Positions 47,404 to 55,640 of a stretch of DNA of 64,000 bases are shown here, piece by piece (the stretch's first letter is position 1; the number at the start of each line of letters is the position of its first letter). This stretch comes from Planctomycetota bacterium (GTDB taxonomy: Bacteria > Planctomycetota > UBA1135), in NCBI GenBank assembly GCA_045047305.1, contig JASFYO010000036.1, positions 1 to 64,000 of the forward strand. Direction: 5' to 3'. Position numbers and translations under genes: made by a program. The notes under the pieces are model-generated. The model ran no database searches, was not told the origin of the DNA, and saw nothing but the letters and a program-made list of their open reading frames with translations.

Positions 47404-47798
47404 GCCAGCAGTGCAGCGCCTAAGAGGTAAACCGCATGCGCAGCGCCAAGCACCGTGAGGTCATAAGGTTTCCACTGCCAACTTCGGCGCTTTCTGCGCA
47501 TCACCCAAGCAATGCTTGCTGCTTCTATGTTCCAAAACCATAACCAAGCCGCCACAAGCGCCACAACCCAGCCTAAGGTGTTGCCATCTAACTGAGAATC
47601 ACTGAGACCCAAAGCACCGGATGCATAAAGCACATAGCCTCCGCCTAGGCTGACCACCCGCGCCAGCAATAAAAGTTTCACCGTAGGGCGGAAGCTACGC
47701 CCTATCGTGAACCAGATGACCCACCAATGCAGGAAAAGGACAATCGGGACCAGGATGGGATGAAGGCAGGCGTGGAACAGTTCCGCTAACGGGCTCAC
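47400..47798 (-). CDS. Hypothetical 4-TM membrane protein
   Basis: Hydrophobic; GTGA and ATGA overlaps with its neighbours. Confidence 0.65.
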   Translation of the reverse strand: MSPLAELFHACLHPILVPIVLFLHWWVIWFTIGRSFRPTVKLLLLARVVSLGGGYVLYASGALGLSDSQLDGNTLGWVVALVAAWLWFWNIEAASIAWVMRRKRRSWQWKPYDLTVLGAAHAVYLLGAALLA

Positions 47799-48103
47799 GC
47801 CAAGGCCTCCTGGCAACGCGAGCGTAATTCCTCGATAGTGAAGAGTCCGGTATCGTGGCCGTCATCGAACAGCACGCGATAAGCGTAGCGGCCGACGGGT
47901 TGCATATCCTTTAATCCAATGTCTTCCGGAACCTTTTCCGGATCCACTTGGCGCGCTCCGGTGATTTCATTCACGCAAAAAGCACAAGGGCAACTAATGC
48001 GTAACTCGCGAATGCCTAAGGCACTCACGAGTCCGTCCGACCAGGTAAACCTTAATTGGTCACCTTCCCGCTTTAGGCCGGTAAGCCGGGAGTCCATCGC
48101 CAA
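47795..48103 (-). CDS. DUF971 / GBBH-like N-terminal domain protein
   Basis: WSDG, LR..CPCAFC, VGRYA, FDDGHDTG.F. Confidence 0.85.
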   Translation of the reverse strand: MAMDSRLTGLKREGDQLRFTWSDGLVSALGIRELRISCPCAFCVNEITGARQVDPEKVPEDIGLKDMQPVGRYAYRVLFDDGHDTGLFTIEELRSRCQEALA

Positions 48104-48118
48104 GCTCGACCTTCGAGG

Positions 48119-48862
48119 TCAGGCTTCCATCTCCCGATCTTCTTGCGGCGATTTATCGTAACGCGCACGCACATTTTGCCGACCCATGTCGCGCAAGCGC
48201 AGGGAAGACTTACGCAGCCCAAGATCATGCGCTTTGGAGACTACGCTTTTCACCGTTCGGTTTAAGTGATCGGCAATCGAAAGATTATCTTGTTCCGGGT
48301 AAAGTCGCCGAAGCTCCTCCACCTCCTCCGGACGCCAACGTGGCATCTTGACTGGAGGTCCAGAGCCAGCGCGGCGCTGGTAGCCCTTGTCTTTCGCTAG
48401 ACAAAGTTCCTTCGCCTTTTCTTCGATTCGATCCGCAGGGCGGCCAAGGATTAACGAAACGTCTTCAGTGGCGCGGGTGCCATAAAAACGCTTCAGGAGT
48501 TGCAGGTCAGCCGATGTCCAAGCGCGCTGTTGCACTTCGCCGCGAAGCTGGTGCACCTTGCGTTCAATCTCTCCGACAGGTCGGCGCAGAATGCGGGCGA
48601 TGACATCGAAATCCGTAGCGCCAAGATAGCCTTTCAGCTTGCGCACTTCCTTCGCTGTCCACGGGCCCATTTGGGCCTCGCCTTCAAAAACTTTGCCAAT
48701 CATGCGGCGGACACTCTGCACTGTGCGGTTCAATTCCTGCGCAATCTGAACTTCTGTTTTGAAGCCATACATGCGTCGCAACCTTTCAATTTCCGGATAG
48801 GACCATCGTCCTTTCCGGCGACCTTGAGGGTTTGGGGAGTTCATTCCGTCAGATGCGGTCAT
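48119..48862 (-). CDS. Four-repeat Myb/SANT (GcrA-DBD-like) HTH protein
   Basis: Gapless repeats anchored at W20, W68, W115, W176; very basic. Confidence 0.7.
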   Translation of the reverse strand: MTASDGMNSPNPQGRRKGRWSYPEIERLRRMYGFKTEVQIAQELNRTVQSVRRMIGKVFEGEAQMGPWTAKEVRKLKGYLGATDFDVIARILRRPVGEIERKVHQLRGEVQQRAWTSADLQLLKRFYGTRATEDVSLILGRPADRIEEKAKELCLAKDKGYQRRAGSGPPVKMPRWRPEEVEELRRLYPEQDNLSIADHLNRTVKSVVSKAHDLGLRKSSLRLRDMGRQNVRARYDKSPQEDREMEA

Positions 48863-48972: not shown

Positions 48973-50727
48973 CTAAGTCTTGTGGGAACCTACGCTTTCG
49001 ACAACTTTCTGCCATGCCTGCGAGGTCAAATCATCCAAAATGCCTAAAGCATCCTTAGATGTACTCGCACGCGCAGCCTGTCGCGCAGTTTCCCGTAAAG
49101 ACTCAATATCGACCTCTCGCAGCAAGGCTTTAATTTCTGGGACAAAAAGTGGGGACATGGAGAGGCCTCCAAAGCCCACTCCTGCGAGGAAAAACGCTCC
49201 TGCGGGCTGTCCGGCCATCTCGCCACAAACCGAGGCTGGGACGCCAGCTTCTTGGCAAACCCTTGCGATGTAACGCAAGACGCGCAAATTCGCCGGATGA
49301 TAGGGTTGATACAAATCGGAGACCCAAGGATTATCGCGGTCAACCGCAAACAAGTATTGAGTGAGGTCATTGGTGCCTACGGAAATGAAATCCACCTCCT
49401 TCACCAGGTCCGGCAAGGCCATGGCGGCGGCAGGAACTTCAATCATCACCCCAAAACGCACGCCCAGGTCTTCCGTACCGGCGATCGCGTAGAGCAAATC
49501 CTTCGCTTGGCGCACCTCCTCCACCGTGGTCACCATGGGCAACATAATGTTGACGCCACCATGCCCCCGGCATTCGCGCAATGCCTGCAGTTGCATCAGA
49601 AATAAATCTTGCCATTTCAAGCTCAAACGCAATCCGCGCCAACCCAATGCAGGGTTCGCTTCTTCCGGAGTGCTGAAGTAGCGAAGCGGCTTGTCTCCAC
49701 CGATGTCCAGAGTGCGAAAGGTGACGGTTTTGCCAGGAAAGCAGTTTAGCACCGAACTGTAGATTTCTTTCTGCTCCTCCACCGATGGGAAGGATGGGCG
49801 TTCCATATAAGCAAACTCAGTACGAAACAATCCAACTCCGCTAACCGTTTCCAAATCGAACATGTCCAAATCACGTGGCGACTCAATGTTCACCAAGATT
49901 TTGACTTCGGTGCCATCCGCGGTGTGTCCGGCTTCTTTTGCGGCATCGGCCAAGACATCGCGTACGTGCGAGAGTTCCGAGGAGCGGGTGAGTGCAGCTT
50001 CTTGCTCTTCGGTGGTTGCGCCGAGAATGACCGTAGCGCTATCACCGTAAACCACACAAGGTTGGCCAGAACGTGCCCGTTCATCGACTCCTTCCATACC
50101 GGTCACGGTTGGAATGCCATAACTACGCGCGATCACTGCGCCGTGGCTGTAACGTCCTCCACGCGAACAAATGATGGCGGCGATTTTTTCGCGCGGATAG
50201 CTCACCACCAAAGTTGGGGTCAGCTCTTCCGCAACCAATACCAAACTTCCAGAGCCAACACTACGCGCCGCCTCAACATCGCTTTCGCTGAGTTGCTCGA
50301 GCACGGAATTCCATGGATCGCGCAAGTCGGCGGCCCAGGATTTCATGTCGCCACCTTCTAAGCTATCAAACAACTTGCCGAACTTATCCAGCAGGGCTTG
50401 AATGGCTGATTCTGGTGCCATCAGCTCGTCCATCACCCAGCGACGCAAATCCTTAACCGCTTCCGGGTCCATCAACACTGCAGCTTGGGCGGCGTAAATG
50501 GCAGCATCTTGCAGACCAAGTTCTTTCGCCGTGGCTGCTTGGATTTCCTCAAGCTTCTTAAGCGCAGCCGTTCGCGCATCCGTAAGGATTTTCCACGACG
50601 GCTCGGCATCGTGCGCATCGATGCGACGCAAGGGAATGCGCCTTTTGGTGTGAGTTAGGGCTACGAACACGGAGCCAACCCCCACACCAGGTGCGATGTA
50701 CGTTCCGTTTAGCTCGATGCGTTCCAA
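48973..50727 (-). CDS. ptsI: PEP-protein phosphotransferase (PTS enzyme I), no GAF domain
   Basis: GGRYSHGAVIAR phospho-His, GLFRTEF, RTLDIGGDK, GTNDLTQY, CGEMAG. Confidence 0.93.
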   Translation of the reverse strand: MERIELNGTYIAPGVGVGSVFVALTHTKRRIPLRRIDAHDAEPSWKILTDARTAALKKLEEIQAATAKELGLQDAAIYAAQAAVLMDPEAVKDLRRWVMDELMAPESAIQALLDKFGKLFDSLEGGDMKSWAADLRDPWNSVLEQLSESDVEAARSVGSGSLVLVAEELTPTLVVSYPREKIAAIICSRGGRYSHGAVIARSYGIPTVTGMEGVDERARSGQPCVVYGDSATVILGATTEEQEAALTRSSELSHVRDVLADAAKEAGHTADGTEVKILVNIESPRDLDMFDLETVSGVGLFRTEFAYMERPSFPSVEEQKEIYSSVLNCFPGKTVTFRTLDIGGDKPLRYFSTPEEANPALGWRGLRLSLKWQDLFLMQLQALRECRGHGGVNIMLPMVTTVEEVRQAKDLLYAIAGTEDLGVRFGVMIEVPAAAMALPDLVKEVDFISVGTNDLTQYLFAVDRDNPWVSDLYQPYHPANLRVLRYIARVCQEAGVPASVCGEMAGQPAGAFFLAGVGFGGLSMSPLFVPEIKALLREVDIESLRETARQAARASTSKDALGILDDLTSQAWQKVVESVGSHKT

Positions 50728-50735
50728 AGCTTACC

Positions 50736-52202
50736 TCAACTGCTCACGACCGCAGCTTGCGGACGCGTCCAAGAATCCATCTTGTTTTGCATGACCGAGA
50801 TGAGTTGATCGACTGCCACGCGTTCCTGCGCCATCGAATCCCGCTCACGCAGAGTGACGGTTCCATCAGTCAATGATTCACCATCGATGGTGATACAAAA
50901 AGGCGTACCAATCTCATCCTGACGGCGATAACGGCGTCCAATCGATTGATTCTCCTCGATGGCAGTGCGGAACTGCTTGCGCAACATGGCTTCGACTTCG
51001 GCTGCCTTCTCCGGCATGCCATCCTTTTTCACCAAAGGAAAAACCGCAACCGTGACTGGTGCGATTTTCGGGTGAAAGCGTAATACCACACGCTGCTCTT
51101 TGCCTTCTCCTTCTTCATCGTATGCATCGACGAGGAAAGTCATGGCCGTACGATCGCAACCGGCAGCAGGCTCAATCACGTAAGGCGAAATGTGCTCGTT
51201 CTCTTGATTGTCAAACCAAGTTAAGGAAGTACCGCTCGCTTCCGAGTGCTTCTTCAAATCATAGTCAGTGCGATTCGCAATGCCCTCCAACTCGGACCAG
51301 CCGAATGGAAAGAGGTATTCCACATCGCCACAGCCGGCGGCATAGTGCGCCAACTCATCTTGCTCATGCTCACGCATGCGTAACTTTTCTGGATTCACGC
51401 CAAGATCCAAGTACCACTGAAAACGTTCCTTCTGCCAATATTCATACCACTTTGGCGCTTCTTCCGGACGGCAGAAAAATTCCATCTCCATTTGCTCAAA
51501 CTCACGCGTGCGAAACACAAAATTGCCCGGGGTGATTTCGTTGCGGAAACTTTTACCAATCTGCGCGATGCCGAAGGGCAGTTTCTTGCGCGTGGAAGTG
51601 ACCACGTTATTGAAGTTAATGAAAATGCCTTGGGCCGTTTCCGGGCGCAGATACGCCACCGAAGCACTGTCCTGCAACGCACCAACGTGGGTTTCAAACA
51701 TCAAGTTGAACTGGCGGACATCGGTCCAATCGTCGGTGCCGGAAACCGGACACTTGATTTTCTCATCCATGATGAGCTGACGCAGGCCTTCATTGTCGGA
51801 GATGACGGCATTCAACTTGGCGGTCAAGGCCTCCACGCGATCCATCTTGCCCTTCTTGCGATACTTCTCGATCTTTTTTTCGACCAAATGATCCGCACGA
51901 TAACGGGCCTTAGAGGTTTTGTTATCAATCAGAGGGTCCGAAAAACCGCCGACGTGGCCGGAAGCGCGCCAAACATCGGGCGATTGAATGATGGCAGAGT
52001 CCAAGCCAACAACATCCTGGCGTGAGTAGACCATGGCTTCCCACCAAGCATCTTTCACGCGGCGTTTCAGCTCCACGCCCAGCGGGCCCCAATCGTACGT
52101 AGCCCCTTGTCCACCATAGATTTCCGACGCTGGGAATACGAATCCCCTGCGCTTGCACAGGGAGACAATCTTGTCCATCACATTGGGAGCGGGCTTAGCC
52201 AT
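50736..52202 (-). CDS. glyQS: Glycine--tRNA ligase, alpha2 type
   Basis: LCKRRGF, YLRPETAQGIF, FRNEITP, FRTREFEQME, ELEGIANR. Confidence 0.96.
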   Translation of the reverse strand: MAKPAPNVMDKIVSLCKRRGFVFPASEIYGGQGATYDWGPLGVELKRRVKDAWWEAMVYSRQDVVGLDSAIIQSPDVWRASGHVGGFSDPLIDNKTSKARYRADHLVEKKIEKYRKKGKMDRVEALTAKLNAVISDNEGLRQLIMDEKIKCPVSGTDDWTDVRQFNLMFETHVGALQDSASVAYLRPETAQGIFINFNNVVTSTRKKLPFGIAQIGKSFRNEITPGNFVFRTREFEQMEMEFFCRPEEAPKWYEYWQKERFQWYLDLGVNPEKLRMREHEQDELAHYAAGCGDVEYLFPFGWSELEGIANRTDYDLKKHSEASGTSLTWFDNQENEHISPYVIEPAAGCDRTAMTFLVDAYDEEGEGKEQRVVLRFHPKIAPVTVAVFPLVKKDGMPEKAAEVEAMLRKQFRTAIEENQSIGRRYRRQDEIGTPFCITIDGESLTDGTVTLRERDSMAQERVAVDQLISVMQNKMDSWTRPQAAVVSS

Positions 52203-53491: not shown

Positions 53492-54949
53492 TTAATCTTC
53501 CAAGTGAATTTGCATATTGGAGGAGAGTGATAACTCAGTAAACACCTCTCCCCCTCCCTTTTCCAAGAAAACAGCTACTACCATTTTGTCATTAGGATTT
53601 CCCCATGGCAATGTTCCCCGGCCGAACTCATCGCACGTTATTTCTGGATAAACACGGAACCAAGGATAATCCTGAAAGGGTTGCACCAAAACCTTGGCAT
53701 TTCGCGCTACCAATCCCTCTGAATCATAAATCTGGAACGAAATCCCAGGGTTCTCAGAACCTAACTTTCCCTCCATTATCCATTCCAACGGGACGGCTTC
53801 AGAAAAAACAATTTCATTCAGCGTCAATTCTTCTGAATAATATTCGCCAGAGGGGTGAACAATCTCAAGCAAATATCGGCTCCCGCTAGGCATTTCTGCG
53901 GCAAAGGAACCCGATTTGTCTAATTTAAAAGAAGATCGCGCCACTCTTGTTTCCACGCCGTTTGCGTCACGCTTCCCAGTTAAGGAAAATCCTTTACGAT
54001 GATCATCACCAGAAAAATCACTCCCATCATTACTCAAAAGTACGGATACGTTAACAGAATATTCAGAGGATGGGAGGGTTGAAACCACCTTGCCATGAAG
54101 CACTGGTTTCGGGGCCAACTCCAAAACGACATCTGGTAGTGGGCCAGGACTTACATCCATTTTGAAAGAAGTTGATGAAAACCCGGCAGCGTTTACTTTC
54201 GCAATCATTATTCCAGAAACTGGGGAATCAACTTCGCAATTGCCATTCGGGCCCGAAACTGCATGAACATTTATTATGGGAAATCCGTCCTCTTCGCACA
54301 AAGATTTATATTGGGCTAGGATAGGATCTGGATGGTTGCTCGGATATGGGGATATCCTTTTTTTATTCAGAGTTGCTACCTCATTAGTATATTTCCTCCA
54401 ACCCTCCTCCGAAACAAATGACATCGATACGGAAATCTCATCTACCTTTAACTTTGTAACTGAGTTCCTCGCCGAGATTTGAAAATGAGACAAAAATGGC
54501 AATGCCAAATTTAGACTATTCCCTGTTGCAGACCAAATCAAATTTTCAACAGGGCTGGAATAAGTAGAAAACCCGTTAACAGTAGGAACCTCATAAGAAA
54601 CCGACTTATCTCCGGATTTCAACAAAAAGCTTTCAACCACATTGCCTGCCTCTGGATCGTCCACAAGGACGTCCAATCTAGTTTTTACAGATTGGAGTCC
54701 TAAACTGCGAAGGGCAATCACCTTTGCCCCAGTAGCCATGTCTGTAATATTCAGTTTTAGCCTAGGAGAAAGGCTTTGCCTAATGAACTTTGCGGACAAT
54801 GCTGCATCCCCATTTTCCTCAATTGACCTTGCCCCCCCCACCAATAGATAGTCCCTCCCTTCTGAGGAAGAGTTTTCCTTCATCAACAACCAAGAAAGCA
54901 GGAACACTAAGAAAAGTATTCCTGCAATGAGTGCAGTGCGAGATGACAA
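53492..54949 (-). CDS. Hypothetical membrane-anchored beta-sandwich protein (low GC)
   Basis: TTG 1 nt after the upstream stop, N-terminal TM, SGPNG, YDSEG, CDEFG motifs. Confidence 0.6.
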   Translation of the reverse strand: MSSRTALIAGILFLVFLLSWLLMKENSSSEGRDYLLVGGARSIEENGDAALSAKFIRQSLSPRLKLNITDMATGAKVIALRSLGLQSVKTRLDVLVDDPEAGNVVESFLLKSGDKSVSYEVPTVNGFSTYSSPVENLIWSATGNSLNLALPFLSHFQISARNSVTKLKVDEISVSMSFVSEEGWRKYTNEVATLNKKRISPYPSNHPDPILAQYKSLCEEDGFPIINVHAVSGPNGNCEVDSPVSGIMIAKVNAAGFSSTSFKMDVSPGPLPDVVLELAPKPVLHGKVVSTLPSSEYSVNVSVLLSNDGSDFSGDDHRKGFSLTGKRDANGVETRVARSSFKLDKSGSFAAEMPSGSRYLLEIVHPSGEYYSEELTLNEIVFSEAVPLEWIMEGKLGSENPGISFQIYDSEGLVARNAKVLVQPFQDYPWFRVYPEITCDEFGRGTLPWGNPNDKMVVAVFLEKGGGEVFTELSLSSNMQIHLED

Positions 54950-54950
54950 G

Positions 54951-55640
54951 TTACGGAGCCCCACCGACTCCCGGATCTCCGACTGTGCCCTGGCTCCCAT
55001 TTCCTGCGCCACCTGTACCGGGGGTTCCAATATTTCCGGGTGCCGCCCCGTTTCCACCAACTGCTAATCCATCTCCAGCGCCAGTGAGCAAAGCGTCGCC
55101 ACCATTGCCGGCACTCCCTGCGCTGCCTCCACGGCCGCCATAGTTGTTCTGCCCCTCCGAAGATGATCCCGGATCCCCATCTCCTCCATCACCCCCGGTG
55201 CCTCCGGTGCCTCCATTTCCTGCATGGGCACATCCTTTCCCGCCGGCAGCTACGCTTGCTGCCGCATTTCCCCCATGAGCACCATGTTGGCCGGGCGCGC
55301 CATTCCCGCCGTTAAATCCAGCAGCTCCGTTTCCCCCGTCTCCCCCATTGCCGCCAAATCCTCCGATTGCATAGCCGGATTCGCCATTCTTCACAACAAC
55401 GAGAGCTGGAGGCCCTCCAGTGGGTACCCCACCTGGTCCTCCAGCCGCACCACTTGAAGAGGGGCTATTCCCAGCCCCTCCAGAATTGCCGTTACCAGGA
55501 ATGTCGGAGAGAGCGTCTTGGTCGTTGTGAATAGCAGCACATTCGGCTTTGGTTAATGTATTACCAAACGGTGTTGATTGCAATCCTACCCTAAGCAAGC
55601 TGGAACCTAGAATCACGAGGGAAAGCGTAGATTTCTTCAT
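54951..55640 (-). CDS. Secreted glycine-rich PGRS-like protein
   Basis: MKK plus hydrophobic leader; GGNGGDGGNG / GNGGTGGTGGDGG G-x-x repeats. Confidence 0.7.
   Translation of the reverse strand: MKKSTLSLVILGSSLLRVGLQSTPFGNTLTKAECAAIHNDQDALSDIPGNGNSGGAGNSPSSSGAAGGPGGVPTGGPPALVVVKNGESGYAIGGFGGNGGDGGNGAAGFNGGNGAPGQHGAHGGNAAASVAAGGKGCAHAGNGGTGGTGGDGGDGDPGSSSEGQNNYGGRGGSAGSAGNGGDALLTGAGDGLAVGGNGAAPGNIGTPGTGGAGNGSQGTVGDPGVGGAP

Follow-up and report, generated by a model that had tools for sequence, protein, structure and literature searches.

A ptsI-linked core gene of a Planctomycetota class encodes four tandem repeats with a predicted Myb/GcrA-type helix-turn-helix fold

Herein we describe a gene for a basic protein of 247 amino acids (pI 10.1) that consists of four repeats of predicted Myb/GcrA-type helix-turn-helix (HTH) fold, located at 48119..48862 on the minus strand of a 64,000-nucleotide stretch of Planctomycetota DNA (the window). 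The gene belongs to the core of the Planctomycetota class of its host and has ptsI, which encodes enzyme I of the phosphotransferase system (PTS), as a near-constant neighbour. Its product can be classed neither as GcrA nor as a genuine Myb protein, because the m6A pocket and zinc finger of the former are absent and only one of the three tryptophans of the latter is kept. The family is an undescribed, class-defining variant of the known tandem three-helix HTH regulators. Our favoured reading, held with moderate confidence, is that of a DNA-binding transcription regulator co-expressed with enzyme I, in which repeat 4 would serve as the reading head and a predicted fold points to DNA binding.

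A protein search retrieved 242 homologues, and all of those with a named organism were from Planctomycetota. The best 80 genome loci come from records that bear the title Planctomycetota or "bacterium", and one, with an identity of 61%, is from UBA1135; from these titles we infer that the genomes with the gene belong to the host's class. The family profile matched 246 of 251 class genomes (98%) and 99 of the 100 high-quality ones, with a single match in 229 genomes and several in 17; among the latter, the three that were examined owe their extra matches to a long linker that divides a single ORF, and four carried two full-length copies on separate contigs. Five class genomes gave no match: in two, ptsI runs off the end of the contig, two more also lack this ptsI, and the fifth (G216, family f10) is a real exception, in which ptsI is followed directly by genes for a STAS protein and a kinase with no four-repeat gene between them. 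In a sample of the phylum, all 18 own-class genomes matched against 5 of 283 others, where the matches were weak and partial (four of the five cover the repeat-4 region only), and the profile search gave no full-length match in any of the 283. For 63 host and 5 viral rows, a quick tree, unrooted and built without a clade test, required 10 changes of host-family label (minimum 9; shuffled mean 38.9), so that the gene follows host families as expected for vertical inheritance. The phylogenetic profile and synteny check proposed in the first-pass annotation of this DNA therefore places the gene on the chromosome, lineage-wide and not confined to prophages. A prophage origin of the window copy was rejected on the grounds of this core distribution, its housekeeping neighbours and its GC content of 0.546, which is like that of the surroundings. 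Two further observations concern DNA other than the gene itself. Positions 53492-55640 of the window have a lower GC (0.495-0.515), with one ORF of 522 aa whose codons are atypical (2nd percentile) and another of 229 aa that is rich in Gly, and were possibly acquired. Planctomycetota of family f89 encode short, very basic single-repeat proteins that resemble repeat 4 plus a basic tail (L047:1489-1728; L049:1438-1761; four genomes matched, two read), match no Pfam family and are candidate small nucleoid proteins.

Relatives are also encoded on five putative viral IMG/VR contigs (L196-L200, of 155 pattern matches), none of which has ptsI within the 3 kb examined around the copy. Being a chromosomal core gene with only these five viral-contig copies, the family is not phage-borne. 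Two of the copies are full four-repeat proteins at 37-38% identity, and three are proteins of ~125 aa reduced to repeat 3, the LAKDK motif, repeat 4 and the tail, which suggests that this R3-R4-tail unit is a minimal module. A helicase gene, presumably with an intein, lies just downstream of the four-repeat copy on L200, which falls among the f2 sequences on a long branch with support 94; although this tree is unrooted and without a clade test, it suggests that viral copies were captured from hosts.

Directly upstream of the four-repeat gene in the window is ptsI (48973..50727, minus strand; 584 aa, catalytic residues intact), whose stop lies 110 bp before the four-repeat start. Beyond it is a gene for a protein with Pfam tRNA-synt_2b and HGTP_anticodon domains (50736..52202, minus strand), which we take to be the glycyl-tRNA synthetase glyQS, and on the other side a small GBBH-like_N protein is encoded at 47795..48103 (minus strand). 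Neighbours were counted with tblastn, which replaced a clustering of ORFs that was confounded by shadow ORFs. The ptsI gene was directly upstream and on the same strand at 79 of the 80 best genome loci, at 35 of 36 loci of families f3-f9 (the remaining locus being without room for it) and at 37 of 37 best class matches; these sets overlap and kin share gene order, so the counts are not independent. In one deep genome (L184) the ptsI stop even overlaps the four-repeat start codon as ATGA. The rest of the flanks turn over: glyQS is near 33 of the 80 loci and in some deep genomes, the GBBH-like gene follows in 30 of 80, in closer relatives only, and several loci of f2 are preceded by a Tex-like gene. 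In the deep families the next gene in 30 of 36 loci is one for a STAS protein; 25 of 36 have that of a receiver/PAS/histidine kinase, after which a single receiver protein is encoded. Neither the STAS nor the kinase gene occurs in f1/f2 (0 of 80), f4 or f8. The whole cluster can be seen at L178:5539-11802 and in L195, and STAS proteins of f3 and f5 share 70-84% identity. Divergently upstream of ptsI, deep genomes also encode a membrane-anchored, coiled-coil-like protein of ~400 aa (L178:4148-5398 and L184:4072-5271, both minus strand), for which Pfam gave no confident family. The pairing of the four-repeat gene with ptsI is separable, as follows from the viral copies and one further copy (L130) with no ptsI nearby, and from the exceptional genome that keeps the ptsI cluster without the repeat gene. 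A promoter/terminator scan yielded about what chance would (2 vs 2.7 and 8 vs 6.3).

The enzyme I of the window passes TIGR01417 (411 vs 341.7), and all 66 sequences compared share its residues H195, R302, E430, N453, D454, R464 and C501. In the host's own genome (87.7% complete) we found HPr and three EIIA matches, and neither an EIIC (PF02378) nor an HPrK match. The HPr gene and one EIIA gene lie far from ptsI, at L169:4895-7551 (G000:C5), beside genes that we take to be hpf-like and RNase E/G-like. The same genome encodes a second enzyme I-like protein of 577 aa (L168:6642-8375; G000:C74), 26% identical to that of the window, which keeps the phospho-His motif, while GTND reads GLDT and CGE reads YGE. 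On our assumption that these two motifs serve autophosphorylation from PEP, the second protein is probably unable to carry it out, judging from its sequence. At least two enzyme I-like matches occur in 50 of 61 class genomes, and a class-wide pseudo-enzyme I is possible. The complement of enzyme I, HPr and EIIA without EIIC fits the transporter-less regulatory PTS that has been described for Planctomycetes as the EI^R group in the accessible part of PMC2405797.

The four segments quoted in the first-pass annotation as gap-free repeats are all present exactly in the translation of 48119-48862. When aligned without gaps over 39 aa and scored with BLOSUM62, all six repeat pairs reached 39-71, as compared with the best pair in each of 300 shuffles of the protein (mean 19.5, 95th percentile 30, maximum 42); three of the observed pairs were reached by no shuffle and the other three by one shuffle each. 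The tryptophan spacing of 48, 47 and 61 likewise holds, and the residues concerned (20, 68, 115 and 176) are all four Trp of the protein, which has a single Cys (C154). Among 126 distinct family members the spacing of 48 is kept in 117 and that of 47 in 121, and the third spacing varies from 58 to 83.

Each repeat had been read as a three-helix Myb-like unit, in agreement with an AlphaFold2 model computed from an alignment of 108 of 121 family sequences (pLDDT 89.3, pTM 0.67), which predicts four such bundles (helices at 22-58, 70-108, 117-152 and 178-214), an additional short helix (159-165) and, near the C-terminus, a helix that spans 220-236. The repeats occupy aa 16-60 (48683..48817), 64-109 (48536..48673), 111-156 (48395..48532) and 172-218 (48209..48349), all on the minus strand. 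Repeats 3 and 4 are joined by KDK, the short helix and a length-variable linker (aa 157-171; 48350..48394, minus strand), and the C-terminal helix corresponds to aa 219-236 (48155..48208, minus strand). The statement that the protein has no other domain stands as far as Pfam is concerned, but two elements outside the repeats are near-invariant, namely LAKDK (155-159) at the end of repeat 3 and the tail helix G-R-x-N-V-x-x-R (227-234).

Conservation, assessed in the 126 distinct members, is distributed very unevenly. Repeat 4, with its GcrA-DBD-like predicted fold, is the most conserved, with 15 near-invariant columns as compared with 4-5 in each other repeat. Over six outward positions of helix 3, its mean entropy is 1.26 bits, and the values for repeats 1, 3 and 2 rise to 2.16, 2.86 and 3.02, respectively. 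The net charge amounts to +6.0 in repeat 1, +4.6 in repeat 4, +1.7 in repeat 2 and +0.7 in repeat 3. The recognition face is thus conserved in repeat 4 and partly in repeat 1 (R52 in 85%), not in repeats 2 and 3, although repeat 3 has a conserved YGTR.D.DL loop. A protein of four equal DNA readers is accordingly unlikely, since the faces of repeats 2 and 3 are variable and neutral to acidic. Outside the repeat cores KDK, MPRW and the tail residues G227, N230 and R234 are near-invariant across the class, as is K210. The repeat-4 face reads V-K-V-S-H in families f1/f2 (0.48 bits) and V-x-A-N-N, more variable, in deeper families (1.72 bits), a difference that argues against a single fixed target site. 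Given the fold and the conserved faces, repeat 4 is likely the sequence-reading head, repeat 1 likely an auxiliary DNA contact, and the role of repeat 2 likely structural.

We propose that repeat 4, together with the flanking MPRW and the C-terminal helix, would form a major-groove reading head in the style of GcrA, that repeat 1 would make a second, looser DNA contact, and that the body made up of repeats 2-3 would serve as a spacer or bind other proteins, tied to repeat 4 through the linker of variable length. The gene would be co-transcribed with that of enzyme I, within a PTS seemingly without EIIC permeases, and in deep families also with those of the STAS protein, PAS histidine kinase and receiver protein, a module that may be ancestral. 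Co-transcription with these partners suggests that the protein is the output of a signalling system, which might report carbon/nitrogen status or stress; control would be indirect, not by His-phosphorylation of the four-repeat protein. A functional coupling to the PTS, with the protein as transcriptional output of that system, is advanced tentatively from the gene order. It is doubtful, though conceivable, that we are dealing with a lineage-defining master regulator, through which PEP/PTS and STAS-kinase signals would set a global growth or developmental programme, and one of such importance that phages have captured it whole or as R3-R4-tail, in the manner of GcrA in Caulobacter phages.

Phage T5 D5 is an abundant duplex-DNA binder, and the four-repeat protein could in principle be a sequence-tolerant nucleoid-associated or DNA-coating protein of that kind, with a link to ptsI that is positional only. 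The strongest family match is indeed PHROG 323, "transcriptional regulator, D5-like" (96.5 bits, E 4.4e-27, three stretches), a Vibrio-phage D5 protein ranks second in the viral Foldseek search (E 2.2e-5), and T5 D5 is of similar length (255 aa) to our protein, whose high pI and class-wide core status would also suit a coating role. The direct match to T5 D5 is however weak (hhalign probability 23.5, E 8.6e-4; BLASTP E 0.29; one weak stretch with the repeat HMM), the TM to the Vibrio D5 model is 0.17, the repeat-4 face is near-invariant in f1/f2 and repeats 2-3 are not basic. Codon bias, a crude and partly circular proxy, also speaks mildly against coating, with the gene at the 60th percentile as compared with 0.92-1.0 for 8 of 10 highly expressed markers. 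Taken together, we find this alternative unlikely. By eye, T5 D5 (L172:12311-13078) appears to have three or four tandem HTH repeats, and its HTH motif is predicted to bind retron msDNA according to the accessible part of PMC13405049. The family is part of a tandem-HTH repeat type (PHROG 323) that is widespread in prokaryotes and phages: its profile matches 8,024 representatives at E<=0.001, unnamed prokaryotic relatives have 4-12 detected repeats, and similar unnamed clusters occur in Pseudomonadota, Bacillota and others in the ESM Atlas. GenBank phages gave 6 weak partial matches at 26-32% identity. Among the best 150 profile matches, 33 have none of the three motifs LAKDK, MPRW and G-R-x-N-V-x-x-R, most of these being longer arrays. 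Several metagenomic proteins (P0155, P0160, P0173, P0187, P0198 and P0201) consist almost wholly of 7-12 repeats of the same type.

The best PDB sequence match was c-Myb R1R2R3 (phmmer E 2.9e-5, residues 17-146), while repeat 4 alone found nothing significant in the PDB with phmmer. Pfam scores straddled their thresholds (Myb_DNA-bind_6 at 23.0 against a gathering score of 22.9, Myb_DNA-binding at 23.1 against 24.4), PF00249 matched 101 of 108 homologues at E<=0.01, and NCBIfam had no family for the protein. Eukaryotic Myb/SANT repeats are defined by three regularly spaced Trp. Each repeat here has only the first, with the second and third Trp of c-Myb aligned to non-aromatic residues, and the three-Trp signature of Myb/SANT is therefore absent. 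A Foldseek search of the PDB, which had been recommended as a check, placed multi-repeat Myb proteins in its top rows (c-Myb, SNAPc and Reb1, E 0.005-0.04) but returned nothing at E<=0.001, with c-Myb at TM 0.18 and rmsd 14 Å against the whole model. Superposition on the tandem Myb repeats of 6KKS and 1H89 gave an rmsd of 10.9 Å over 94-99 residues, for a DNA-free model with a pTM of 0.67, and the top profile match in the PDB, the archaeal CRISPR-repeat binding protein 2LVS, was non-significant (E 0.063). The analogy to eukaryotic multi-repeat Myb thus applies to fold and not to descent, the repeat type being common in prokaryotic and phage proteins.

Structure comparison by VIA against 48,161 chains put the GcrA DNA-binding domain (DBD) first for repeat 4 (Z 8.4, rmsd 1.1 Å over 47 aa, 32% identity), which upholds, for a predicted model, the resemblance claimed at the outset; Tc3, Cdc5, R2R3-MYB and Reb1 followed at Z 6.7-7.1, and matches to Myb repeats overall ranged over Z 5.3-7.0. 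All of these, that of the GcrA DBD included, are middling scores in a range (below ~13 for small helical domains) that may mean only a common arrangement. Spliceosomal Cdc5 (Z 6.7-7.0) and mitoribosomal chains (3j6b_a, Z 5.3; 6ywe_a, Z 5.6) match the same fold, the latter over 168-247, i.e., repeat 4 and tail, and could indicate an RNA-binding or ribosome- or RNA-polymerase-associated factor, for which near-universal retention, as in housekeeping factors, and the neighbouring glyQS and Tex-like genes would also speak. Their Z scores are nonetheless below that of the GcrA DBD, the DNA-backbone contacts of GcrA are kept and the deep-family operon is one of signalling, so we judge such a role quite improbable.

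A methylation-reading analogue of GcrA in control of the cell cycle would fit the rank of the GcrA DBD among all chains and the Pfam GcrA matches in 26 of 108 homologues (E<=0.01), and the viral-contig copies parallel the GcrA homologues that phage phiCbK carries, as described in the accessible part of PMC3556154. According to the part of PMC5887438 available to us, the m6A pocket of GcrA consists of R33/N34/I37/G38, bulky changes at G38 impaired the protein, and W3/T32/K39/H41 contact the DNA backbone. The backbone contacts map to W176/T203/K210/H212 in repeat 4, but the pocket is replaced by V204/K205/V208/S209 (V48, Q49, R52 and R53 in repeat 1), and S or N stands at the G38 position across the family. 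Neither the CCCH sigma70-binding domain, with a single Cys in the protein, nor a match to NF050816 is present, and the host's own genome has no PF07750 match. The proposal of an m6A reader is not supported, given these replacements, and we consider a GcrA analogue very unlikely. A direct PTS substrate, which enzyme I or HPr would phosphorylate on His as in PRD-containing regulators, is highly improbable despite the tight ptsI linkage and translational coupling, since Pfam finds no PRD domain in the protein or its homologues, no His is class-wide, and H212, equivalent to the DNA-contacting H41 in the accessible description of GcrA, is kept in 97% of f1/f2 members as compared with 27% in deep families, by which it was ruled out as a phospho-site.

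Under the favoured reading of a DNA-binding regulator with repeat 4 as its reading head, retention in 98% of the sampled class genomes and the lack of any full-length match among the other genomes sampled from the phylum make the gene a strong candidate for lineage-specific control, and also a near-diagnostic marker for the class. To our knowledge, the targets of transporter-less PTS are largely unknown outside Proteobacteria and Firmicutes, and the protein is a possible new output for such systems. The large uncharacterised superfamily of prokaryotic tandem Myb-like repeats moreover gains in it a member that is tractable and inherited vertically. Since the fold was already known, the surprise is moderate. 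Literature searches and the main text of the Saltatorellota preprint (bioRxiv 10.1101/817700), in which "Myb" is absent, did not describe the family, although supplements may list core genes. Wiegand et al. placed the class that includes UBA1135 together with the shape-shifting Saltatorellus clade, and the portion of the preprint available to us reports unusual shape change and division in cultured relatives.

Bacterial Myb-like proteins with several repeats are thus nothing unique; what sets this family apart is its fixed, class-wide and ptsI-linked form. With the EI^R group of PMC2405797, the own genome shares an intact enzyme I, HPr and EIIA and the lack of an EIIC match, whereas the accessible part of that paper describes no HTH-repeat partner gene such as the one that adjoins ptsI here. 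Bacterial and phage Myb-type factors are known, e.g., the RsfA-like ones (PMC7824862, as far as accessible); these and 2LVS have the prokaryotic Myb-type HTH in common with our protein and differ in repeat number and context, with no significant sequence match (RsfA being set apart by its description only). Eukaryotic Myb proteins (c-Myb 1H88, SNAPc 7XUR, Reb1 5EYB and Cdc5) share the tandem ~50-aa three-helix repeats that start with W(S/T)xxE, whereas here only the first Trp is kept, the repeats are 47-48 aa and Myb_DNA-binding is below its cut-off. The N-terminal DBD of Caulobacter GcrA (PDB 5YIU; PF07750) shares the repeat-4 fold and, as accessibly described, the backbone contacts, yet GcrA has one such repeat, in contrast to four here with a changed pocket and no CCCH domain, in ptsI-linked form in Planctomycetota. 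PHROG 323, T5 D5 and the unnamed arrays have the same repeat type, from which our family differs in its fixed four-repeat layout, its LAKDK, MPRW and tail motifs, and its status as a chromosomal core gene.
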